Source of the DNA: Thermostichus sp. DRC_bins_24
Lineage (GTDB): Bacteria; Cyanobacteriota; Cyanobacteriia; Thermostichales; Thermostichaceae
Direction: 5' to 3'
DNA: 25,614 nucleotides
Assembly: GCA_039794845.1 (NCBI GenBank)
Contig: JAUQVK010000019.1
Span: forward strand, 1-25,614
The first letter of the stretch is position 1; each line of letters opens with the position of its first letter. The notes beneath the pieces are model-generated. The model saw only the letters and a list, made by a program, of their open reading frames with translations. It was not told where the DNA came from and searched no databases. Made by a program: the position numbers and the translations under genes. Of the stretch, positions 15,211-25,602 are shown piece after piece.

Positions 15211-15307
15211 GTTTGTTACAAAGATCCCCAAAAAGATCCCCAAAAGTGTCAAAGTTTTTGGTTCTCCGCCCTAGGAAACTTTTGAAGTGCTATCTACTGC
15301 CAGATCC

Positions 15308-17677
15308 ATGACAATGCCTGATCCAAAGTTGCCAACCTCCACAACCATTGCCTTAGCCTGGTGCTTAGCCTGGGGAGAATCCAGGGATCCCGCCCATGCA
15401 CCTGCCAGCCTGCAACAGATGGTGAGGGCTCTGCGCTCTGGTGATAAAGCCGGGATCCCATCTGAGCTAGGGGCTATTCTGAGGCAGATCCAGCAGTTTC
15501 AGCAAAGCTCCAATCACTTTCCCAAAACTTTACAGGCACTTCAGGCTCTCTACCCGGATGTGTGGCAACAGCAAAGCCGCATCGGGCTGGTCTATGGGGG
15601 GGCCACCAAAATCAAGGGCTATGTATTTGAGTCGGCTAAGCTGGCCGAGATCCGGGGGGCCTCAGCCTTGTTGGATCGGATCAACTTGGTGGATCTGCCG
15701 GCTTTTTTTGGGGATCCCACAGACACCTACTCCGGCTGGCAGGATTTGGATGAGGGCAGTCGTGCCCGCCTGAGGGAATTTGTAGAAGATCCCGACCCGA
15801 GAGCCGGGATCCAAGCATGGCTACAAGAGCACTATCCTGGTTTGGCGGCAGCTCTGATCCCGGAGCTGATCATCTACTCCACGGGCGGCAATATCCTGGC
15901 CTTTTGTCCGGCCGCTTGGGTCAACGATCTGGCGGATGCCATCGAGCGCCGCTATACCCAAGAAACCCTGACGGCGAATGCCTGTGCGGTGGGATCCACC
16001 TTCCGCCTGTTGGAGTTTCGCTATGGATTGTTGCGGGATCCCATTGAACAAACCCCTTGGCTGGATTGGTTGGAGGCGAATAAAGACCATTCCTTGGTGA
16101 AAGCTTATTTTGGGGCTTGTCAAGAGGAGGATTTTCAAAATCGAAAAAGTTTTAATGAATTAGTGGGAAATCTGGCGGCTCAATTCAACTACCGCCGCAA
16201 CGGCAACCCAGATCCGGAGCGAGTCAGCCGCGCCTATCCTGCTTTTTTTGAAACCCACCCCTATGTGCGCCGAGATAGCACCGACCGTCGCCTTGCCATC
16301 GCCAAAGCCGAACTGCCCGGGGATCCCTGGCTTTCGGAAGCGACTGCCCGCAAGGCCTTAGTGGGTTGCCAAGCCAAACGGATTGAAACCGGGAAACAGG
16401 GTTGGTATCGCAAGTTTCCTGAATGGGATCCCGGTTTTGTGGAGAGTTGGGTGACGCGATTTGGGCGATTTTTAGACTCTGAGGCAGGGGAGCCCTATCG
16501 GGAGCGCTATTGGCAGGATTATGAAAGCAAAGCCCGGCCCCAGGACAGGATCGGGGAAGCCCAATCTTTACGGGAAGTGGCCAATGCCAGCAACGGCTGC
16601 CAAGGGTTTGTCGCCTACATTTATGCCGACGGCAACAATATGGGGGGCTACATCCAGAAAATTAAAACTCCCGAGCAGTACCAACAATTCAGCCGAGATG
16701 TTTCCGAAGCAACTGAAAAAGCAGTTTATCATGCCCTGGCTCAGCATTTACAAGCCCATCAAATTCAGGGGTTACAGCAGGATCCCGATAGCTACCAAAA
16801 CCGCAATGGACAGTGGATTCATCCCTTCGAGATTTTAACCATTGGGGGGGATGACGTTTTCATGGTGGTACCTGCCCACAAGGCCCTAGATATTGCAGCG
16901 ACGATTTGTGAGCAGTTTGAGCGGATTCTTCTTGCCAAATCACAGGATCCCGAGCAATCTCTGAATTATGCTGCCCAGACTCCAGGAATTATCCCTCAAC
17001 GTTACCAAACTAGAGATTCTCAGGGCAGTTCAGGTCAGTTATGCCAGCTATCCAGCTCAGTAGGGGTTTTGATCGCTTCAGAGGACACCCCGATTTACTA
17101 TGCCCAGAAGCTCGCCGAGCAACTGCTTAAATCTGCCAAAACGTATTCCAAAAAGCTCAAACTCAAAGACAAAGATTATTCAGTAGCAACCCTTGATTTT
17201 CTCGCCCTCAAGTCTGTCACGATGATTGCCTCCAATATCAAAGACTTCCGTAAAGAAGCCCTCGAGATCCCCAAAGACAATCACACCCTCAAACTCTACG
17301 CCAGCCCCTACACGGTGCCGGAAATTAACGGTTTGCTTAAGACTCTTCACGCCCTCAAAGAATCAGGATTCCCGCGTTCTCAGCTTTATCAAATGCGCAG
17401 TTTCTTGGAGAAAGGCAAACGGACGGCCACCCTCAACTACCTTTATTTCCGCACCCGTCTGAAAGAGAAAGCCAAACCTCTTATGGAAGAATTTGAGCAA
17501 ACTTGGTGCAAAGCCAAAACCAACGATGGACACCTTCCGCCGTGGATGCACATTCCAGCAAACGCCAACGGATCTAAAAACAGTACCTACGAGACCATCT
17601 GGCGGGATCTCGTTGATCTGTATGCTTTTGTATCCGAACCCGTTCAAAATAAAGCTCCGACTGCTCGGGAGGAATGA
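15308..17677 (+). CDS. cas10: Type III (III-D-like) Cas10, no HD domain, intact palm GGDD
   Basis: GLVYGGATKIKGYVFES.KL.EIRGAS.LLD, IYSTGGN, YIYADGNNMG and TIGGDDVF motifs. Start is GTG 15287 or ATG 15308/15314. Confidence 0.95.
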   Translation: MTMPDPKLPTSTTIALAWCLAWGESRDPAHAPASLQQMVRALRSGDKAGIPSELGAILRQIQQFQQSSNHFPKTLQALQALYPDVWQQQSRIGLVYGGATKIKGYVFESAKLAEIRGASALLDRINLVDLPAFFGDPTDTYSGWQDLDEGSRARLREFVEDPDPRAGIQAWLQEHYPGLAAALIPELIIYSTGGNILAFCPAAWVNDLADAIERRYTQETLTANACAVGSTFRLLEFRYGLLRDPIEQTPWLDWLEANKDHSLVKAYFGACQEEDFQNRKSFNELVGNLAAQFNYRRNGNPDPERVSRAYPAFFETHPYVRRDSTDRRLAIAKAELPGDPWLSEATARKALVGCQAKRIETGKQGWYRKFPEWDPGFVESWVTRFGRFLDSEAGEPYRERYWQDYESKARPQDRIGEAQSLREVANASNGCQGFVAYIYADGNNMGGYIQKIKTPEQYQQFSRDVSEATEKAVYHALAQHLQAHQIQGLQQDPDSYQNRNGQWIHPFEILTIGGDDVFMVVPAHKALDIAATICEQFERILLAKSQDPEQSLNYAAQTPGIIPQRYQTRDSQGSSGQLCQLSSSVGVLIASEDTPIYYAQKLAEQLLKSAKTYSKKLKLKDKDYSVATLDFLALKSVTMIASNIKDFRKEALEIPKDNHTLKLYASPYTVPEINGLLKTLHALKESGFPRSQLYQMRSFLEKGKRTATLNYLYFRTRLKEKAKPLMEEFEQTWCKAKTNDGHLPPWMHIPANANGSKNSTYETIWRDLVDLYAFVSEPVQNKAPTAREE

Positions 17678-18387
17678 ACATGGTCAGCTTGGCACAACTA
17701 CCCCGTCAGGGACGCACCACAACATCCCTGTCGCTCACTGCCCGCCTCTCCTCCGCACTCTCGGTGGGATCCGGCGGCTCCAGTGGATCCCTGGCCGATA
17801 AACCCATCATTAAAGATAGTTTTGGACGCCTGTTGATTCCGGGATCTCAGCTTAAGGGTCGGCTGCGCCATGAGTGCGAAAAATTGGCCCGAGGGCTGGG
17901 CTGGCCGATCTGTCAATCTCCGGATCCCAATTTGATGTGTCCCAAACGGGAGGGGATCCCTGGGGATTTTCAGCGGCAGGAGTATCAGGGATCCCATTGT
18001 TTGGTCTGTCAAATCTTTGGCAATCCGGCTTTGCCTTCTCGCCTTTGGGTGGATGATTTGATTTGTGATCTCTCTGCAGATGCTTTTGAGGAAACGTTGC
18101 GCCCTGGGGTAACCATCAATCGCCGCCGCCAAACCGCCGAAGATCAGCGGCTCTATCTTATTGAAACCTCACCGGCTGCAGAACTGGCATTTACGGGATC
18201 CCTACACTTGTTGCCCGACTGCCCAAGCTGGAGCAAAGCCCTAATTCTGTCTGCTCTGCACCACATTCACGCGCTGGGGGGGAGCAAATCGGCGGGTCTG
18301 GGTTGGATCACCTGGGATCCCAAATCCTTGAAGGATCTGGAACCTTCGGAGCAGGATTGGCTTTTTCTGAAAAAGGGAAGGGCGTAA
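17674..18387 (+). CDS. csm3: Cas7-group RAMP (Csm3-like)
   Basis: ADKPIIKD...LIPGSQLKGRLRHECE, CLVCQIFG, RPGVTINRRRQTA and G-rich loop LGGSKSAGLG; ATGA overlap with cas10. Confidence 0.9.
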   Translation: MNMVSLAQLPRQGRTTTSLSLTARLSSALSVGSGGSSGSLADKPIIKDSFGRLLIPGSQLKGRLRHECEKLARGLGWPICQSPDPNLMCPKREGIPGDFQRQEYQGSHCLVCQIFGNPALPSRLWVDDLICDLSADAFEETLRPGVTINRRRQTAEDQRLYLIETSPAAELAFTGSLHLLPDCPSWSKALILSALHHIHALGGSKSAGLGWITWDPKSLKDLEPSEQDWLFLKKGRA

Positions 18388-19610
18388 TGGAAACCATTCA
18401 ACTGACCATCACGGCCCAATCTCCACTCGCCATTGGCCGCCAAAAACCCGGGGGATCCGTCAGCGAAGCCCAAGACTACATTCCCGGTTCGGTCATACGG
18501 GGATCCCTGGCAGGACTGATCCTCAGCCAAATGGATCCCAACGCCACCCCAGACGGTGACTTTGCGGCCCTATTCACCGCTCCTCAACCTGCCATTTTCA
18601 CCAACGCCTATCCGGGATCCCATAGCCGAGTCATCCCCATGACGGCTCTCAGTTCCAAAAATGATCCTGGCTTTCGCCATTCAGATACTAGCAAAACAGG
18701 AGTTTTCGACACCCTCATTGATCGATTTTGCGCGCTGAAAATGGGGATCCCATTTGATCCCACAGAACCATCCGGTGGACGAGTGGAACCTTTCAGTGGC
18801 TTCTATGAGCAAGAGGGATCCCACTATGAGACCGCCTCAACAAGCAAACGACTTCTGACTCGCGTAGGCATCAATCGCCGTCGCGCCACCGCTGCCGATC
18901 AGATCCTCTACAGCCTAGAGGTGATGAACGAAGGCAAGTCCAAAAAAGGCACCGAGAAAAATGGGACGATTCAGCCCACAGTATTTACCGCCAGGATTTA
19001 TCTCAGGGATCCCAAATTAGCCCAAACCCTATCAGAATATATCAATAAAAATGCTCATTTATTGCGCTTGGGGGGAAGTGTCTCTCGTGGGTTGGGTCGA
19101 GTTAACATTAAAGCTAAACGTCTGACATCCTCGAGTTCTTCTCTGCCGGAAAGAGTCAAAACTTTCAACAAATTACTCAGGGATCGCTGGCAGCAGTGGC
19201 AGATTTTTGGGGATCCCAGGGATCCGCTTCCGGACAAACGGCAGTATTTCTCGGTGGGGTTGCAATCCGGGGCTATTCTCAAGGAGAACTGGCAGCGCAC
19301 CACGGTTATTAGCCCCGGGATGCTACAAGCAGAGGCCAGCCTTGAGGATGATTCTCTCACTCTGGAGCTCGCCTTTAGTAGCTACAGCACTCTCTCGGGT
19401 TGGAATGCTGCTTGGGGCCTATTCAAAGATGTAGATCTGGTTACCAACCCAGGAGGCGTTTTCCTCTTTAGTACCACTAATATCGATCCATGGATCCCGG
19501 TATTGAGTGAGCTAGAGCAAAGAGGAATTGGAGAACGTACCGGCGAAGGGTTTGGGCAAATCGAGGTGTGTAGTGAGTTTCATCATCATTTTTGGGAGAA
19601 TGTGCTATGA
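18387..19610 (+). CDS. csx10: Csx10 (Cas5-group RAMP of type III-D)
   Basis: SPLAIG, YIPGSVIRG, RVGINRRRATA, LGGSVSRGLG, GWNAAWGL and GIGERTGEGFGQ motifs; TAATG coupling to csm3. Confidence 0.9.
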   Translation: METIQLTITAQSPLAIGRQKPGGSVSEAQDYIPGSVIRGSLAGLILSQMDPNATPDGDFAALFTAPQPAIFTNAYPGSHSRVIPMTALSSKNDPGFRHSDTSKTGVFDTLIDRFCALKMGIPFDPTEPSGGRVEPFSGFYEQEGSHYETASTSKRLLTRVGINRRRATAADQILYSLEVMNEGKSKKGTEKNGTIQPTVFTARIYLRDPKLAQTLSEYINKNAHLLRLGGSVSRGLGRVNIKAKRLTSSSSSLPERVKTFNKLLRDRWQQWQIFGDPRDPLPDKRQYFSVGLQSGAILKENWQRTTVISPGMLQAEASLEDDSLTLELAFSSYSTLSGWNAAWGLFKDVDLVTNPGGVFLFSTTNIDPWIPVLSELEQRGIGERTGEGFGQIEVCSEFHHHFWENVL

Positions 19611-20041
19611 CAGTTGCAACTGAAAAAATCAATTCCGAGCAAGAACTCAAAATCCAACGCGGGATCCGTTTGGCAGAGGATGATCTTGTCATTGCAATCC
19701 AAGATGCCCTTGATAAGAAGCAATATGGCAATCTTGAAGAATCACAATTCAGAAATTTAGTTCGGGTTGCCACTTCCACAGAAAGTACTGAAGTCATCAA
19801 AAACTTCATTCGTTATCAAGTAGGTCGGGATGATAAATGGGGAAGAGGCAAAGGCTCATTGGCAGAACAAATCATTGATGATATTGAAAACTTAATCAAT
19901 AAAAAGGCAGAGTCTATTGCTGAGCAAGCAGGTCTTCCAAAGAAATCAGCAAAAAGTAATGAGATCAAAATGGAACTGATCCGCCGCTATTTGGGTTATG
20001 GGGCGCGCTATCTCAAGTACAAACGAGAAGGGGGATCCTAA
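19607..20041 (+). CDS. Small subunit Cas11 (Csm2-like)
   Basis: Small helical protein with SQFRNL..VA, E.IKNFIRYQVGR and RRYLGY..R; position in the operon; ATGA overlap with csx10. Confidence 0.78.
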   Translation: MTVATEKINSEQELKIQRGIRLAEDDLVIAIQDALDKKQYGNLEESQFRNLVRVATSTESTEVIKNFIRYQVGRDDKWGRGKGSLAEQIIDDIENLINKKAESIAEQAGLPKKSAKSNEIKMELIRRYLGYGARYLKYKREGGS

Positions 20042-20044
20042 GGT

Positions 20045-20659
20045 ATGGCATATAGCGACTTTACCCTTAGCTCAGTTTGTAGGGCATTTGACATTATCCT
20101 TCAGGAGGGGCATAGTTTGTTTGAGTCTATACCTGGTACAGAGGTCCCTGACAGACTGAATTCTTTTTTGCAGCGATATGTACCTCTGGCCACAGCGATT
20201 AACAGCGAAAAAGCCCGCTCTGAGTTCATCATTGCCCCGGTTTTGGCTGAAGTCAGGGAGCTAGCTGATAGACAACTTTCCCTTTTCTCAGGTAAAGAGT
20301 TTAATGTGGATCCCAGCCTTGGCTTGACCGGCTATTGTGACTATATTCTTTGTCTATCTCCTGAACAGTTGTTTATTAAGTCTCCTGTCATGATGGTTGT
20401 TGAAGCCAAGAACGAAAACATCATCGGTGGCTTGGGTCAGTGCTTGGCCAGTATGGTTGCAGCTCAGATGTTTAACCAAACAGAGGGATCCCAAGTTTCT
20501 GTCATTTATGGTGCGGTAACCAGCGGCACAAACTGGAGATTTCTAACTCTAGAAGATAAAACCTCATCAATTGACTCAATAGAATATCACATCTCACAAC
20601 TTGAAAAGATCCTCAGTATTTTATTGCTTCCCAGCAAACAGCCGGTTTTGTCTTGTTAG
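20045..20659 (+). CDS. PD-(D/E)XK restriction-endonuclease-fold protein (widespread cyanobacterial family), copy 1
   Basis: SEKARSEFIIAPVL, G.CDYIL, VVEAKNE, GQCLA.MVAAQ and IYGAVTSGTNWRF motifs. Confidence 0.8.
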   Translation: MAYSDFTLSSVCRAFDIILQEGHSLFESIPGTEVPDRLNSFLQRYVPLATAINSEKARSEFIIAPVLAEVRELADRQLSLFSGKEFNVDPSLGLTGYCDYILCLSPEQLFIKSPVMMVVEAKNENIIGGLGQCLASMVAAQMFNQTEGSQVSVIYGAVTSGTNWRFLTLEDKTSSIDSIEYHISQLEKILSILLLPSKQPVLSC

Positions 20660-20681
20660 CTCACTTTCGTTTTGGTGACCT

Positions 20682-21533
20682 ATGTTTGATATCTTCAAAA
20701 ATCGCCTCGAAGTTACCGGGATCCTGACTACGGTTACGGCCCTGAGAATTGGATCCGGACGTTCCACCGAACCCATCGGCTCCGACTTGCCGGTGCTCAA
20801 AGATGCCCTGGGTCGCCCCATTATTCCCGGATCCAGTTTTAAGGGGGCCATGCGCTCACGATTGGAAAGCTTCTTGCGGGGGATTGATCCCAACTTGGCC
20901 AGGGATCCCTCAGAGTTAACCAGTACCGCTCAGTTTAGGGTCATCAACCAACTCAAACAAGATCACAAAGGAGACGATGCCGCCCTGACAGAAGCACTGA
21001 TTGGGGAGACAGATCTGGTATCCCAAGTTTTCGGATCCCCTTGGCTATCTGGCAAGGTACAAATTCGGGATCTGCCTGTTGTGGCCAGCGCTTGGTTTGG
21101 GCAATATCAAGAGCGAGATGGGGTAGCTATTGATCGGGATACCGAAACCGCATCCGATGGCAAGCTTTATGACTTTCAGGTAGTGCCCGCCAACACCCCT
21201 TTTGAATTTCGCATGGTAGTAGAAAATGCCCAAGAATGGGAACTGGGTTTGCTGATGCTTGGGCTTTATCAGTTTGAAACGGAACAGATCCCTTTGGGCG
21301 GCGGTCGCTCCCGTGGATTGGGGGTAGTGCAGCTTGATATTTTGGAAACCCACTGGTTTGATTCGGAAGGGGATCCCCAACGTTTACTGACTTATTTGCA
21401 AGAATTAACATCGGGATCCCGGCAGCCTCTAGCGCCAGAAACCTTTGTGGAGCTTCGCAGGGACTGGACAAATGCCCTGATCACGAAATTGAGATCAGCC
21501 AGCCAAGCTCAACCTGTTAGTGTTAGGGAATAA
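20682..21533 (+). CDS. csx7: Csx7 / Cas7-group RAMP
   Basis: TALRIGSG, SDLPVLKD..GRPIIPGSSFKGAMRS, RDGVAIDRDTETA..KLYDFQVVP and LGGGRSRGLG motifs. Confidence 0.9.
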   Translation: MFDIFKNRLEVTGILTTVTALRIGSGRSTEPIGSDLPVLKDALGRPIIPGSSFKGAMRSRLESFLRGIDPNLARDPSELTSTAQFRVINQLKQDHKGDDAALTEALIGETDLVSQVFGSPWLSGKVQIRDLPVVASAWFGQYQERDGVAIDRDTETASDGKLYDFQVVPANTPFEFRMVVENAQEWELGLLMLGLYQFETEQIPLGGGRSRGLGVVQLDILETHWFDSEGDPQRLLTYLQELTSGSRQPLAPETFVELRRDWTNALITKLRSASQAQPVSVRE

Positions 21534-21547
21534 AAGGAGGGATCCCG

Positions 21548-22165
21548 GTGGCTTTTACGAACTACAAATCTTTGGAAGAGACAATCAAAGCCTTTCAGAT
21601 CTACTTTCAAGAGGATGATTTTGTTAAAGAGATGCCTTTCTCTGTTCCAGATTACTTTCGAGAAGACTTGCAGATTGTTATGAAAGATGGAGCCGTTGAA
21701 AGCTCCGAGTTTGCGATTTGCGAAAATATCATCTATCCAGTTCTCAAAGAAGTATGGAAAGTCTATCGAGAAAACTTTATTCTTTGGAGTCATCGATATC
21801 TAAACTGCGATCAGGATTTACAAGGCTTTCCTGAATACATTCTTGCCCGACGTTCGCCGTTGGGAAGAGTTGTCTTTGATAAGCCGTATTTACTAATTGT
21901 AGAAGCGAAAAAAGACAATTTCGACTATGCCTGGGGACAATGTATTGCAGAAATGATTGCAGCCCAGAAATTGAATAACCAAGACATTACTATTCATGGG
22001 ATAACCTCTAATGGCTTAATCTGGCAATTTGGCAAGTTAGAAGGAAATATATTCACCCAAAATCAAAAATATTATTCCTTGCAAAATCTTGAGCAGCTTT
22101 TTGCTGTTGTCAACTTTATGTTTGACCAATGCACTCAACAACTCAAAGCCTTTGCACACACCTAA
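21548..22165 (+). CDS. PD-(D/E)XK restriction-endonuclease-fold protein, copy 2 (AT-rich)
   Basis: SEFAICENIIYPVLKEVW, G.PEYIL, IVEAKKD, GQCIAEMIAAQ and IHGITSNG..WQFGKL motifs; AGGAGG RBS before the GTG start. Confidence 0.8.
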   Translation: MAFTNYKSLEETIKAFQIYFQEDDFVKEMPFSVPDYFREDLQIVMKDGAVESSEFAICENIIYPVLKEVWKVYRENFILWSHRYLNCDQDLQGFPEYILARRSPLGRVVFDKPYLLIVEAKKDNFDYAWGQCIAEMIAAQKLNNQDITIHGITSNGLIWQFGKLEGNIFTQNQKYYSLQNLEQLFAVVNFMFDQCTQQLKAFAHT

Positions 22166-22180
22166 AAGGGATCCCTAATC

Positions 22181-23143
22181 ATGCACAAACGCTACGTCAA
22201 CCACTGCACCATCAGCCTCACCCTCAAACCGGATGGGCCTGTCTTGATTAAATCGGGCAAGGAAGGGGCGGATCCCACCAAGCCGGATATGGAGTTTGTG
22301 GAAACCTACCACCAGGGGGGAAAAACGGTCTATTTTCCGGGTAGTTCCCTCAAGGGGGCAATTCGTGCCCATGCCGAACGCATTGTTCGCACCGTGGGCA
22401 GCGACCAACGACCGGCAGGCGAAAACTTTAAGCTCTGGGCGAGTGATCCCCTCGATCAAAGAGCCAATCAATGGCTGGAAAGAATCAAAGAATCCCACAG
22501 AGTTTATGCCCTATCTTCTTTTACGGATCAAATGTTTGGCAATACCGCCATCGCCAGCCGCATCCGCATCGAAGATGCCTATCCTAAGCCGGGATCCCCG
22601 CTCAAATTAGAGGAACGCAACGGGGTTGCCATTGATCGCGTTTTTGGCTCGGTGGCAGTGGGGCCCTTTAACTATCAGGTGTGTGTGGAGGGCTCTTTTC
22701 AGACCAAGATTCATCTGAAAAACTTTACCCTGGCACAATTGGGATTGATCGGGTTAGTTTTGCGGGATCTTAATGATGGCTGGTTTGGCATTGGCTTTGC
22801 CAAATCACGGGGGATGGGAACGGTGGCGGTAGAGCTGAACTCTGCTGTGGTTCACTATCCTGGCTGCGTGGTCAACGACCAGATTAAACTCTTGGGATCC
22901 AATCTCACCTTTCCGAAAAATCGTCTCATGGGAGTTGGAGAATTTTTGGATGAGGCAGAAGCCGAGAAATATGGGTTTCCGAAGCCAGATTACCAAGAGA
23001 TCCCAATTGCGGCGCAACCTATGGAACTAGGCTTCGGAGCACAGCTTGTCTATACCCAGGGATCCCAGGCGGATGTCAAAAGTTTGTTTACCAGTGCCGT
23101 GAGAAGCTGGAGTCAGTTGCTGCAGGGGGTACAGGCATCATGA
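22181..23143 (+). CDS. Cas7-group RAMP (Csm3-like)
   Basis: GPVLIKSG, PDMEFV, YFPGSSLKGAIRAHAERI, RNGVAIDR and IGFAKSRGMG motifs. Confidence 0.9.
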   Translation: MHKRYVNHCTISLTLKPDGPVLIKSGKEGADPTKPDMEFVETYHQGGKTVYFPGSSLKGAIRAHAERIVRTVGSDQRPAGENFKLWASDPLDQRANQWLERIKESHRVYALSSFTDQMFGNTAIASRIRIEDAYPKPGSPLKLEERNGVAIDRVFGSVAVGPFNYQVCVEGSFQTKIHLKNFTLAQLGLIGLVLRDLNDGWFGIGFAKSRGMGTVAVELNSAVVHYPGCVVNDQIKLLGSNLTFPKNRLMGVGEFLDEAEAEKYGFPKPDYQEIPIAAQPMELGFGAQLVYTQGSQADVKSLFTSAVRSWSQLLQGVQAS

Positions 23144-23589
23144 AACCTGCTTTCGTAGCCACTTTAATTGTTCACAATAATGGTGAACTTTTGCCAATCT
23201 TGCAGCGGCTTTTTCCCCCCTCCCAAAAAAGCTACTCCTTTCTACGCTGGCACCATGATGTCAGTGGCATCAATCCAGGGATCCCTACTGATCTGAGTTG
23301 TCAGGAGGGGCAAGTTTTTTCTGGGCAAGCTGAAATTCGCTGGAAGCCAACTCGGCAAGGTCTGAGTTTATTGTATTTGGGGGTTGAGGTGCAGCCGGAA
23401 GGGTTTAGGGCGCTGCGGGGGAAGTGGGTTTACAGGGATTATCCAGCGGATTTATATGGTAATCAACAGAATCCAGAGACGCGATTTCCCAGACCCCTAA
23501 GCTATCCTAATAATCTGAAGCTAGGTCAGCGACATTTTATTGATGCCAATACAGCCTCCGTTCATTTTATTGCCCTAATTCCGAGGTAG
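23140..23589 (+). CDS. csx19: Csx19-like type III-D subunit
   Basis: About 150 aa with EGQVFS..AEIRWK; located between RAMP genes as in III-D loci; ATGA overlap. Confidence 0.65.
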   Translation: MKPAFVATLIVHNNGELLPILQRLFPPSQKSYSFLRWHHDVSGINPGIPTDLSCQEGQVFSGQAEIRWKPTRQGLSLLYLGVEVQPEGFRALRGKWVYRDYPADLYGNQQNPETRFPRPLSYPNNLKLGQRHFIDANTASVHFIALIPR

Positions 23590-23591
23590 CT

Positions 23592-24644
23592 ATGCCGCCC
23601 CAAGGTCCTAGATCATTGCCGACTAGTTCTGGCAACAAAAATAAAGGAAATTTCAGTCAACCGACTTTCCCTAAACCCTACGAACTAATCCCTTTTCCCA
23701 AGCAGCCTCCCAAACTAGAAAGACCCGCCGGACACGACAAGTTTCATGCCGATAAATTGCATGGCACCCTCTTTCTCACCCTGACGGTGCAAACTGCCGT
23801 TCATATTTCGACCGGCATCATTGCCTTCGGTAGCGATGTGGGGGTACCCGGGATCCCGCTCGTGAAAACCATGACCACCACCCCGGATCAACGGCTTAAA
23901 ATCCAGGGCAGTTCCCTCAAGGGCTGCATCCGCGCCATGTACGAGGCGATCACCAACAGCACCCTTGCTGTGATTACGGGCCGTTACCGGCAGCAGATCC
24001 CCCAAGAGAGACATCCCTGCTGCAGAAAAGAGGAGTTGTGTCCCGCCAGCCGGGTTTTTGGTGCCCTGGATTGGCAGGGCCTGGTAGAGTTTAGTGATGC
24101 CGTTGCTGTGAGCGCAGGATCCAGCGGGGGATCCCTGCCTGCCCTGTATCGCCCTCGTCCGGATCAGCGTCGTGCCTACTTCCAAAACGGCAAAGCCGCC
24201 GGACGCAAGTTTTACTACACTCAAACCGAAGCCCTAGATGCAGGAAATAGTGGCACCCCTACTCAACAAGCCGCCAAAAAAACTGTTTTCAAAACCCAAA
24301 TCCATTTCAAGAATCTCACCCCTGCCGAATTGGGCACCCTGCTCACCGTCTTAGGACAGGATCCCGCTCATCCCATGCTCCTGAAATTGGGCGGGGGCAA
24401 GCCCGTGGGACTGGGATCCATTCAGGTGACCCTGGATAAAATTGAGCGCCCCGCCAACCTCAAAGATCGTTACAGCAGCTACCAAGCTCCGGAGTCAGAC
24501 ACCTTAGAAGGGGACAAACTCACCACCTTTGTTCAACAACAGATTAAAGCCACCCAAGGCTATATTTTGCCGGAGCAACTTAGGCAGCTTGCCGCGATTC
24601 TGAGTCCATCTTCCACTCGCCAACCCCCCAATGGAGTGTACTGA
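23592..24644 (+). CDS. Cas7-group RAMP (Csm5-like, terminal III-D RAMP)
   Basis: PYELIPFP, GHDKF, IQGSSLKGCIRAMYEAIT, CPASRVFG, GRKFY and KLGGGKPVGLGSI motifs. Confidence 0.88.
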   Translation: MPPQGPRSLPTSSGNKNKGNFSQPTFPKPYELIPFPKQPPKLERPAGHDKFHADKLHGTLFLTLTVQTAVHISTGIIAFGSDVGVPGIPLVKTMTTTPDQRLKIQGSSLKGCIRAMYEAITNSTLAVITGRYRQQIPQERHPCCRKEELCPASRVFGALDWQGLVEFSDAVAVSAGSSGGSLPALYRPRPDQRRAYFQNGKAAGRKFYYTQTEALDAGNSGTPTQQAAKKTVFKTQIHFKNLTPAELGTLLTVLGQDPAHPMLLKLGGGKPVGLGSIQVTLDKIERPANLKDRYSSYQAPESDTLEGDKLTTFVQQQIKATQGYILPEQLRQLAAILSPSSTRQPPNGVY

Positions 24645-25318
24645 TGACGACAAACGTTTTGCCGCAAACTGTGGATCTCAGCCCCCAATACTGGGATCTG
24701 GCCCACGGTATCGCCATGACTTTGGTAAGGGCAAATACAGACGTGAATGAGTTGAGCAAAAGCATCGCCTATCTCCGCTCCGTGGCGCATCACCCGGATG
24801 CGGGATCCCGATTTTTCAAATTCACCGGTGAACTTGTTCGAGATAATCGAATCATCCGTTCCAAACAAACCAAGGGGTACTATCGAGCTATTGACCAAAC
24901 CTGTAAAGACTACCTGGAGCCGCTCAAAAACCAGCCCGCCGAGATGCTGCAAATTTTAGGCTGGGCGGCCCGACTGATGCGCTACTACAAAGATGGGGGG
25001 ATGCCCCTCGGCGAGATCCCGCCACCCTTGGGATCCCGGCTTAATAGCGACTCCGACCGGCCGGTGGAGGAACAAGCCCAACGCCTTGCGGAAATTGCCG
25101 AGGTCTTGAGCAATGTAGAGTTTCAAGTGGGGCAAATACTCGAAGCCACCATCATCAGCATCAAGGGCAACAAAGTCACCTACGAGCTTCTGGGATCCCT
25201 CAAGCTCACCCAGAAGGAACCCAAAATGGCGGGATCCCTAAAGGAGGGTCAAAAAGTACAGGTGAAGATCACGGATCTCAAAGAAGACGGTGGGATCCGC
25301 AAAGTGAGTTTATTGTAG
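24644..25318 (+). CDS. CRISPR-associated protein: helical N-domain plus C-terminal S1/OB-like domain
   Basis: TGATG coupling to the last RAMP; helical LGWAARLMRYY segment; C-terminal VGQILEATI...KVT...LKEGQKVQVKI beta pattern. Confidence 0.7.
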   Translation: MTTNVLPQTVDLSPQYWDLAHGIAMTLVRANTDVNELSKSIAYLRSVAHHPDAGSRFFKFTGELVRDNRIIRSKQTKGYYRAIDQTCKDYLEPLKNQPAEMLQILGWAARLMRYYKDGGMPLGEIPPPLGSRLNSDSDRPVEEQAQRLAEIAEVLSNVEFQVGQILEATIISIKGNKVTYELLGSLKLTQKEPKMAGSLKEGQKVQVKITDLKEDGGIRKVSLL

Positions 25319-25488: not shown

Positions 25489-25602
25489 ATGTTATTCGAC
25501 GATGCGCCACCGCCTGGCGGTGGATTCCCTTTTTTCGGGGACGTAAACGTTGACCAGCCTGCACCCAACACGGAAAACCCCCACCCCAAACCGGAGAAAT
25601 AG
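25489..25602 (+). CDS. Putative 37-aa small protein MLFDDAPPPGGGFPFFGDVNVDQPAPNTENPHPKPEK
   Basis: GGAGG RBS 8 nt before the ATG; TATACT -10 box at 25431-25436. Confidence 0.5.
   Translation: MLFDDAPPPGGGFPFFGDVNVDQPAPNTENPHPKPEK

Follow-up and report, generated by a model that had tools for sequence, protein, structure and literature searches.

Two nuclease-superfamily genes in a type III-D operon

The 25,614-bp contig JAUQVK010000019.1 (C19) of the 3.5-Mb cyanobacterial genome of Thermostichus sp. DRC_bins_24 (G000) was analyzed in its entirety and is called the window here. It contains, at positions 15287 to 25318, a single co-oriented operon with the gene order cas10, cas7, csx10, cas11, PD1, csx7, PD2, cas7, csx19, cas7 with an insertion, and csx21. 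PD1 and PD2, the subject of this report, encode small stand-alone proteins of the PD-(D/E)xK nuclease superfamily. PD2 is typical of a known but unstudied accessory family of type III systems and lies in its usual place; members of its subfamily occupy a fixed position, from csx7 to the following cas7, in about half of the cyanobacterial III-D operons examined. What is unusual is PD1, which belongs to the other subfamily and lies in a slot used elsewhere by effectors. We lean towards the view that both are sensor-less, self-contained accessory nucleases and not effectors governed by cyclic oligoadenylate (cOA).

The operon has Cas10, a Csx10-type Cas5, a III-D Cas11, several separate Cas7 proteins, and Csx19, which makes it type III-D (III-D1 as the name is used in the consulted part of PMC13294483). 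The same gene order is repeated in 12 of 15 III-D loci of other genomes (L013 to L016 and L018 to L025); the partial loci among the 15 are L017, cut at the contig start, L026, which has neither cas10 nor cas7a, and the degraded L027. Cas10 of the window keeps the GGDD motif ("TIGGDDVF") that a first-pass annotation, made from the sequence alone, had read as intact. Its roughly 100 N-terminal residues contain no H-D dyad and gave no HD match in Pfam, and no HD motif was seen in the window's Cas10 or in those of 12 aligned III-D loci. Library scans of the 26 open reading frames (ORFs) of the window against Pfam and of the 11 operon proteins against PADLOC found no CARF or SAVED family, in agreement with what had been said of the window.

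PD1 starts with ATG and encodes 204 amino acids (aa), and PD2 starts with GTG and encodes 205 aa. The stop codon of cas11 (20039 to 20041) is separated by 3 nt from the PD1 start codon at 20045, 22 nt separate PD1 from csx7, and an AGGAGG sequence lies 7 nt upstream of the PD2 start codon. The co-orientation of the two copies and their tight spacing with the cas genes, including the 3-nt gap and the AGGAGG, were as first described, and from this spacing we infer that PD1 and PD2 would be translated from the cas operon transcript.

Table 1. Genes and signals of the type III-D operon, in window positions, with the basis of each assignment
Feature	Positions	Strand	Basis
cas10, 796 aa	15287..17677	+	PF22335 E 2.7e-19; PADLOC Cas10 1.3e-62; alignment with 12 orthologues
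cas7 (Csm3-like RAMP), first backbone subunit	17674..18387	+	PF03787 1.3e-21; PADLOC Csm3 III-A/III-D 3.6e-33
csx10 (Cas5 of III-D)	18303..19610	+	TIGR02674 468.8 bits, cut-off 177.3
cas11 (Csm2 of III-D), GC content at third codon positions (GC3) 0.36	19592..20041	+	PADLOC Csm2 3.1e-60; "CAS-III-D effector_SS" 1.1e-58; composition
PD1, predicted stand-alone PD-(D/E)xK nuclease, mostly solitary subfamily	20045..20659	+	PADLOC PD_DExK 3.3e-50; AlphaFold model (AF2), pLDDT 95.8; fold; slot content; tree
csx7 (Cas7)	20682..21533	+	TIGR02581 243.1 bits, cut-off 108
AGGAGG ribosome-binding site of PD2	21535..21540	+	sequence; overlaps GGGATCCC palindrome at 21539-21546
PD2, predicted stand-alone PD-(D/E)xK nuclease, type-III-linked subfamily, GC3 0.38	21548..22165	+	PADLOC PD_DExK 4.6e-47; AF2 pLDDT 96.4; same-slot orthologues; tree
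cas7 (Csm3-like), third backbone subunit	22181..23143	+	PF03787 1.1e-26; PADLOC Csm3 1.4e-51
csx19	23140..23589	+	PADLOC Csx19 "CAS-III-D" 8.7e-33
cas7 with insertion (TIGR03986-like RAMP)	23592..24644	+	TIGR03986 5.7e-41, under its cut-off; PADLOC Csm3 8.7e-44
csx21, type III-associated, function unknown	24644..25318	+	PADLOC Csx21 1.9e-79

Sequence family, fold, and catalytic residues

PD1 and PD2 are 32% identical over 196 residues (BLASTP E value, 3e-25). The four motifs listed by the first-pass annotation for two paralogues of about 205 aa are all present and fall at positions conserved across the family. Nearly the entire PADLOC PD_DExK profile (PDLC01472, 146 positions) is matched by each protein, at positions 2 to 136 by PD1 and 2 to 145 by PD2, and the only other PADLOC match at an E value of ≤0.01 was a weak one to Csx19 (0.005). 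Neither protein matched Pfam (E ≤ 0.01) or NCBIfam. A Pfam scan of 68 family members returned chance-level matches only: HSDR_N (PF04313) matched none of the 68 at an E value of ≤1, MmeI_N matched two at 0.038, and PF05685 (Uma2) was absent both from the matches of PD1 and PD2 and from 25 of the 26 families matched in the scan of the 68. A profile search of the PDB sequences with the PD family gave no match at an E value of ≤1.

AF2 models were built from family alignments and scored as given in Table 1. Foldseek against the PDB returned weak matches only (best E value, 3e-4), all of them of the restriction fold, as the first-pass reading would have it. The models were further compared with 48,161 PDB representatives by VIA-align, with Z scores given here as PD1/PD2. 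The best catalytic-domain matches were the N-terminal nuclease domains of type I, IIG, and IIL restriction enzymes: BpuSI (3s1s; Z, 12.6/13.8), DrdV (7lo5; 11.5/12.3), and HsdR (3h1t; 10.4/10.4), with 126 to 145 aligned residues and root mean square deviations of 2.6 to 3.8 Å. Lower scores were obtained for DUF820/Uma2 proteins (7 to 9), NucC (6.2/6.7), Can1 (6.1/5.7), and Can2 (5.1 to 5.2), and every match with a Z score of at least 8 was a restriction-fold protein. Look-alike clusters in the Atlas are named "Type I restriction enzyme R protein N-terminal domain," and one of them has PF04313 in 16% of its members. The best full-length matches were two human mitoribosome chains, 3j7y_5 and 7a5f_s3 (Z, 12.7 to 15.0; 185 to 192 residues, including the N-terminal extension), neither of them a nuclease. 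We take these chains to be mL37 and mL65, which presumably form a heterodimer of restriction-fold paralogues.

In PD1 numbering, the family-wide conserved positions are E55, E60, D99 (E in PD2), E120-A-K122, Q132, and W164. E55 and E60 are retained in both of the clades to which PD1 and PD2 belong, and Q132 is invariant. Position 99 is D in 75 of 76 PD1-clade rows of the alignment; of the 27 PD2-clade rows, 22 have E there and 4 have D, so that "PEY" in PD2, where PD1 has "PDY," is the norm of its clade. E120 is present in 73/76 and 26/27 rows of the PD1 and PD2 clades and K122 in 75/76 and 27/27. PD1 and PD2 are intact members of the PD-(D/E)xK nuclease superfamily, modeled as a restriction-type domain with an extra N-terminal helical part; the first-pass assignment to restriction-fold nuclease genes is borne out by the AF2 models, the fold matches, and the retained catalytic motif.

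PD1 and PD2 share the E...D/E...ExK core with the restriction enzymes, which carry a motor, methylase, or specificity part, whereas PD1 and PD2 stand alone without these. They resemble the HsdR N-terminal domain in fold but are not members of it by sequence. With Uma2/DUF820 (PF05685) they have in common their size, the superfamily, the multi-copy occurrence in cyanobacteria, the presence at type III loci, and a middling Z score, but these are separate families, and PD1 and PD2 have an N-terminal extension and motifs of their own. Each consists of a single domain and has no sensor domain; the library that found no CARF model match in them readily found the CARF genes of other loci. Among longer proteins a single fused form was seen, with transposase domains, which hints that the family stands alone. 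Thousands of full-length relatives are also about 205 aa long, and for this reason we rejected the idea that PD1 and PD2 are truncated Can proteins.

PD2 in the csx7-cas7 slot

We surveyed 201 genomes sampled evenly across the phylum, in which 15 other III-D loci were marked by Csx10 (TIGR02674) and all were fetched. Another 11 independent III-D loci were found in metagenomes via Csx7, with the csx7-cas7 slot visible in 9. In the genome loci, the slot held an intact PD2 orthologue in nine cases (54 to 62% identical to PD2; one in a degraded locus), an 86-residue remnant in one, and no PD2 orthologue in five. The metagenome loci comprised three intact, three broken, and three empty slots. Overall, the orthologue is intact in 12 of 24 other III-D loci. 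The slot is used in at least four sampled families (f2, f3, f7, and f13), a count that covers seven loci (L016, L018, L020 to L022, L024, and L027). Since the slot is filled this often and the family already has a CRISPR accessory profile in PADLOC, the operon is not the "undescribed III-D variant" that the first-pass annotation had proposed.

Across the 24 loci, the presence of a CARF gene and that of PD2 are only weakly associated. Three otherwise intact operons (L139, L141, and L142) show decay of both genes, with CARF reduced to a fragment of 120 to 134 aa and PD2 split between two ORFs.

Genes with at least 55% identity to PD2 (PD2-type) numbered 26 in the 201-genome sample. They were checked against Cas10 positions and by PADLOC scans of their neighbors, in which L127 stood for the syntenic L128, L129 was represented by two ORFs, and G151 was omitted. 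Fifteen of the 26 are located within or next to type III loci: nine in the III-D slot, two in III-A loci, one at the end of a III-Dv operon, two in degraded type III loci, and one behind a III-D cas6. Of the III-A copies, one is between csm4 and csm5 (L131) and the other behind a Csx1 gene (L132). The Cas10 proteins of these two III-A operons (4215 to 6515 in L131 and 16471 to 18765 in L132) have an N terminus without HD and keep GGDD. The 11 PD2-type genes located elsewhere include four near restriction-modification (RM) genes, a methyltransferase gene, Dnd genes, or DarTG. Five sampled genomes (G179, G065, G017, G151, and G197) have PD2-type genes (61 to 63% identity) and no match to the Cas10 palm at an E value of 1e-6.

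The PDLC01472 profile comes from CRISPR-Cas profile sets, and its recurrence at CRISPR-cas loci is shared by the PD2 subfamily but hardly by the PD1 subfamily (3 of 79 loci; see below). Its catalog entry is a bare name without a reported activity, structure, or partner. The available part of Shah et al. 2018 (PMC6546367) has a "PD-DExK" cluster (cluster 45, subtypes A, B, and D), which its authors call a "possible nuclease" and of which they say that it "may complement Type III DNA targeting." As far as that part goes, these subtypes agree with the III-A, III-D, and III-Dv contexts of the PD family, and the family is possibly the same as cluster 45 (representative, Marme_0670). That part of PMC6546367 describes neither an operon that combines two subfamilies nor a member located in the CARF slot. 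PD-DExK is not mentioned in the accessible portion of PMC12669027, and no characterized member of the PD family was found by full-text searches of the literature; supplementary tables, which lay outside this scope, may hold more.

PD1 in the cas11-csx7 slot

The slot between cas11 and csx7 holds a CARF effector in 11 of the 15 sampled III-D loci, of the CARF-RelE, CARF-DUF2103, CARF-HEPN, or CARF-PD-DExK type. In five loci (L016, L020, L021, L024, and L025), a Uma2-like gene follows the CARF gene of the slot. None of the 24 other loci with this slot visible had a PD-family member in it. Recurrent insertion of the family at III-D loci, a prospect raised by the first-pass annotation, was seen in the slot of PD2 and not, among these loci, in that of PD1. 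We considered a CARF gene remnant beside PD1 and rejected it because the 3-nt and 22-nt gaps on the two sides of PD1 leave no room.

The 80 closest relatives of PD1 in contigs taken at one genome per species are 48 to 61% identical to it and come from many phyla. They include L033, which is nearly identical to the window itself. Among the remaining 79, three are CRISPR-linked: in L037 the gene is part of a III-D operon and immediately follows a CARF gene; in L035 its neighbors are CARF-HEPN, DEDDh, and Cas6; and in L048 it is flanked by a III-Dv Cas7 and a CARF gene. The 79 loci showed no conserved neighbors beyond synteny within a lineage. The nearest kin of PD1 in both trees are L037, L035, and L049, with weak support (74/67). 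L049 is an adjoining PD2-type and PD1-type pair in a defense island, and similar mixed clusters are found in L145 and L146.

Family size, phylogeny, and selection

A word-index search retrieved 5,851 clusters at 90% identity, all annotated "hypothetical protein," and an exhaustive search retrieved 1,050 clusters at 50% identity. The family occurs in 59 of the 201 genomes and 40 of 96 genera, with up to 18 matches in one genome, which agrees with the earlier remark that it is expanded in cyanobacteria. The window's own genome has seven matches, five of them outside the window and adjoining housekeeping genes (uvrB, proS/kaiC, truB/phycobilisome, and ABC transporter genes). One own-genome family copy (C85:42977-43399; L008 9660-10659) is broken by a TAA stop codon and adjoins a Uma2 gene fragment. 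In a tree of 113 members, PD2 belongs to a clade of 27 rows (support, 100; long stem) and PD1 to a clade of 76 rows, while the other own-genome copies form a third, divergent group. PD1 and PD2 derive from two old subfamilies.

The median dN/dS within the PD2 clade is 0.11, calculated from 50 usable pairs of 91 among 14 hand-picked rows of the 27, mostly closer ones, with degraded-locus and solitary copies included. A tblastn search with PD2 found no match at an E value of 1e-3 in 50,697 phage records, and plasmid matches came from 14 records, each annotated "hypothetical protein."

Other type III systems of the genome

A III-Dv locus is split between the start of C15 (1-8100, L114) and the end of C112 (71700-78358, L113). 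One contig end carries Cas6-HTH, CARF-PD-DExK, a 598-aa Cas10, a Cas7-Cas5 fusion, and Cas7-2x; the other carries Csx19, a Cas7 with insertion, CARF-RelE, a Uma2-like gene, and CARF-HEPN. A third system, on C22 (L115), has a III-B Cas10 and Cas1. With three CARF effectors in the III-Dv locus, the cyclase-competent Cas10 of the window would have canonical receivers in trans. The first-pass annotation had considered a canonical effector just outside the window: the genome does have three CARF genes, but they are on other contigs, and the window is a whole contig. According to the consulted part of Hoikkala et al. 2024 (PMC11229360), HD is present in 3% of III-D Cas10 proteins, III-D systems almost never have the HD nuclease and are presumed to rely on signaling, and inter-locus signaling has been proposed for loci without effectors.

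Uma2-like genes (PADLOC candidate PDC-S03) recur in type III loci (L016, L020, L021, L024, L025, L113, L131, and L133). Most follow a CARF gene directly; one lies between cas10 and csm2 (III-A) and another between csx19 and cas7 (III-Dv).

Candidate roles of PD1 and PD2

We favor, by a little more than an even chance, the reading of PD1 and PD2 as accessory nucleases that work on their own. It draws on how strongly PD2-type genes are enriched at type III loci, in three subtypes, on the recurrent adjacency of family members to CARF genes, on purifying selection, and on the solitary life of many copies, including those in Cas10-less genomes; this pattern best suits nucleases brought time and again into the vicinity of type III and CARF genes. 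Both proteins would act as metal-dependent DNA endonucleases, an arm for cutting DNA in a III-D system with no HD motif seen in its Cas10. They would be self-contained modules and not receivers of the Cas10 signal; that PD2-type genes occur in five sampled genomes without a Cas10 match points to such independence. The cOA made by the window's Cas10 would most likely act in trans on the three CARF effectors of the second type III locus.

Several observations weigh against this reading. Of the 24 other III-D loci, 8 lack PD2 and 4 have it broken (L017, L139, L141, and L142); at least 3 of these 4 are otherwise intact operons, and PD2 is therefore dispensable. Only 3 of the 79 PD1-type loci are CRISPR-linked; the other 76 have no cas or CARF neighbors. 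Copies at type III loci and solitary ones are intermixed within the PD2 clade, with at least five forced label changes, and clustering by location is no better than with shuffled labels (185/500); from this intermixing, a hitch-hiker fits as well as a module. Of the best 150 of 368 family matches, 148 are more than 15 kb from any Cas10 match on the same contig, a comparison made by eye. The two near type III are the window's PD1 and the PD2-type gene of the degraded III-D locus of G183. The best 150 of the 368 cover both the PD1 and PD2 types, about 10 of them recur among the listed PD2-type genes, and no PD1-type match among them is near type III except the window's PD1. Further, the nuclease activity of PD1, PD2, and all family members is predicted from the models, and it is the fold that leads us to assume DNA as their substrate.

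A serious rival, if an improbable one, is that PD1 and PD2 are passengers, that is, long-term hitch-hikers like cyanobacterial Uma2 that settle between the genes of many operons, have a function of their own, and contribute nothing to type III immunity. The first-pass annotation had raised this as a caveat, which suits the family at large, with two type III neighbors among the best 150 of 368 matches, better than it suits the PD2 subfamily, with 15 of 26. The passenger reading is favored by the multi-copy habit of the family, with seven matches in this genome and the other copies beside housekeeping genes, and by the repeated changes of location in the PD2 clade. PD2-type genes are intact in degraded type III loci (L027, L117, and L118) and broken in intact operons (L139, L141, and L142). 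The foreign GC3 of PD1 (0.44) and PD2 (Table 1) would fit hitch-hikers, and Uma2-like genes at the same type III loci offer a parallel case. Against it, the type III loci that hold 15 of the 26 PD2-type genes span well under 1% of those genomes, and the same slot is used across at least four families. Both subfamilies also recur beside CARF genes (L132, L118, L037, L035, and L048), and the low dN/dS argues for a selected function, though a selfish one would give the same value. If PD1 and PD2 are passengers, small nuclease genes in cas operons should not be called effectors without evidence.

The most interesting of the remaining readings, which we regard as doubtful, is that a PD2-type protein, here perhaps paired with PD1 as a heterodimer, attaches to the III-D effector complex and provides in cis the target-dependent cleavage of DNA of which an HD-less Cas10 is incapable. 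The PD2-type nuclease might then be the missing DNA-cutting arm of HD-less III-D and of some III-A and III-Dv systems, recruited to the complex in its RNA-bound state and free of any cyclic-nucleotide signal, but we hold this equally doubtful. The gene lies among subunit genes both in III-D (csx7-cas7) and in one III-A locus (csm4-csm5, L131); no HD motif is present in the window's and 12 other III-D Cas10 proteins or at the start of the two III-A ones; the predicted fold is that of domains normally tethered to a targeting module (HsdR, BpuSI, and DrdV); and a PD2-type and a PD1-type gene are adjacent in three other genomes (L049, L145, and L146). The correlation with HD-less Cas10 carries no weight, however, because nearly all III-D Cas10 proteins are without HD, as stated in the consulted part of PMC11229360. 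Recruitment is also at odds with the PD2-type genes in the five Cas10-less genomes and in RM, Dnd, and DarTG islands and with the eight III-D loci without the gene. As for the heterodimer, the intact, PD2-bearing loci L016 and L018 to L024 have no second family gene in the 20 kb fetched; one of these genomes, G163 (L022), has another PD2-type gene about 13 kb downstream. If the recruited arm were real, the CARF effector of the slot would be replaceable, in this lineage, by a second nuclease subunit.

Least supported, and in our judgment very improbable, is a NucC-like effector role as suggested by the first-pass annotation, in which PD1, PD2, or both bind the Cas10 product directly and degrade DNA or, in a variant, degrade the signal as an off-switch. 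The intact cyclase motif of Cas10, the position of PD1 in a slot used by CARF effectors in 11 of 15 loci, the recurrence of PD genes beside CARF genes, the joint degradation of CARF and PD2 genes in L139, L141, and L142, and the precedent of NucC, a restriction-fold protein that senses cOA without a separate domain (in the consulted part of PMC11229360), would all fit, but PD1 and PD2 have no sensor domain, no PADLOC effector model except PD_DExK matches them at an E value of ≤0.01 bar the Csx19 match, their likeness to NucC, Can1, and Can2 is generic (Z, 5.1 to 6.7, versus 10 to 14 for RM nuclease domains), the PD2 subfamily lives in Cas10-less genomes, and canonical CARF effectors are present in the genome. 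Like NucC, PD1 and PD2 are small restriction-fold proteins without CARF or SAVED at type III loci, but they differ in their low Z scores against it, the lack of a PADLOC NucC match, and the occurrence of their family in genomes without Cas10. Can1, Can2, and Card1 are likewise restriction-fold nucleases of type III systems, and CARF-PD-DExK proteins occur in the slot of L022 and in this genome's III-Dv locus, but in the Can proteins and Card1 CARF is fused to the nuclease, whereas PD1 and PD2 have none. For the off-switch variant, no known ring-nuclease family has the PD fold in the part of PMC12409355 consulted, which leaves PD1 and PD2 as ring nucleases unsupported by that source.

Whether it serves as a restriction-like arm acting independently, as a DNase recruited by the complex, or not at all in CRISPR, about half of the examined cyanobacterial III-D operons carry a conserved, selected, never-studied stand-alone nuclease of predicted activity among their subunit genes, and knowledge of its role would fill a gap in how the widespread III-D systems kill their targets. 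The operon in the window is a handy test case, with both subfamilies, no CARF gene of its own, and three CARF effectors in trans.

Composition, palindromes, and assembly

GC3 is low in cas11 and PD2 (Table 1), 0.44 in PD1, and 0.45 in csx19, and it ranges from 0.51 to 0.64 in the other cas genes. Seven of eight housekeeping genes checked have values of 0.62 to 0.72, the eighth being uvrB (C26) with 0.557, and two solitary paralogues on C84 are host-like (0.62 to 0.66). The operon is a mosaic in composition, which suggests gene-by-gene replacement inside the cassette.

The 8-bp palindrome GGGATCCC, which we take to be the HIP variant of hot-spring Synechococcus-like cyanobacteria, has 4,573 copies in the genome (1.3 per kb) and 54 in the window; classical HIP1 has 78 copies. 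One copy ends 2 nt before the PD2 start, another (22168-22175) lies 3 nt after its stop, and a copy matching in 7 of 8 positions is found at the cas11 end, just before PD1. With so high a genome-wide density, these copies lend little weight to PD2 as a GGGATCCC-bounded mobile cassette.

The junctions of the two genes were checked in hot-spring metagenomes. Contigs of runs X1 and X3, which come from two studies and may include the source sample, bridge cas11-PD1-csx7, and X3 alone bridges csx7-PD2-cas7; runs X6 and X7 cover only parts of csx7 and cas7, at a depth of 2 to 4. A metagenome contig joining 20247 to 21938 was taken as an artifact, its shorter side being just 23 letters.

No CRISPR array was found within the window, and the contig ends about 300 bp past csx21; the array and any cas6 must therefore be on another contig. 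A hairpin resembling a terminator lies at 25507-25523, and the sole tandem repeat of the window, 2.2 copies of AAAGATCCCCAA, is located upstream of cas10 at 15220-15245.

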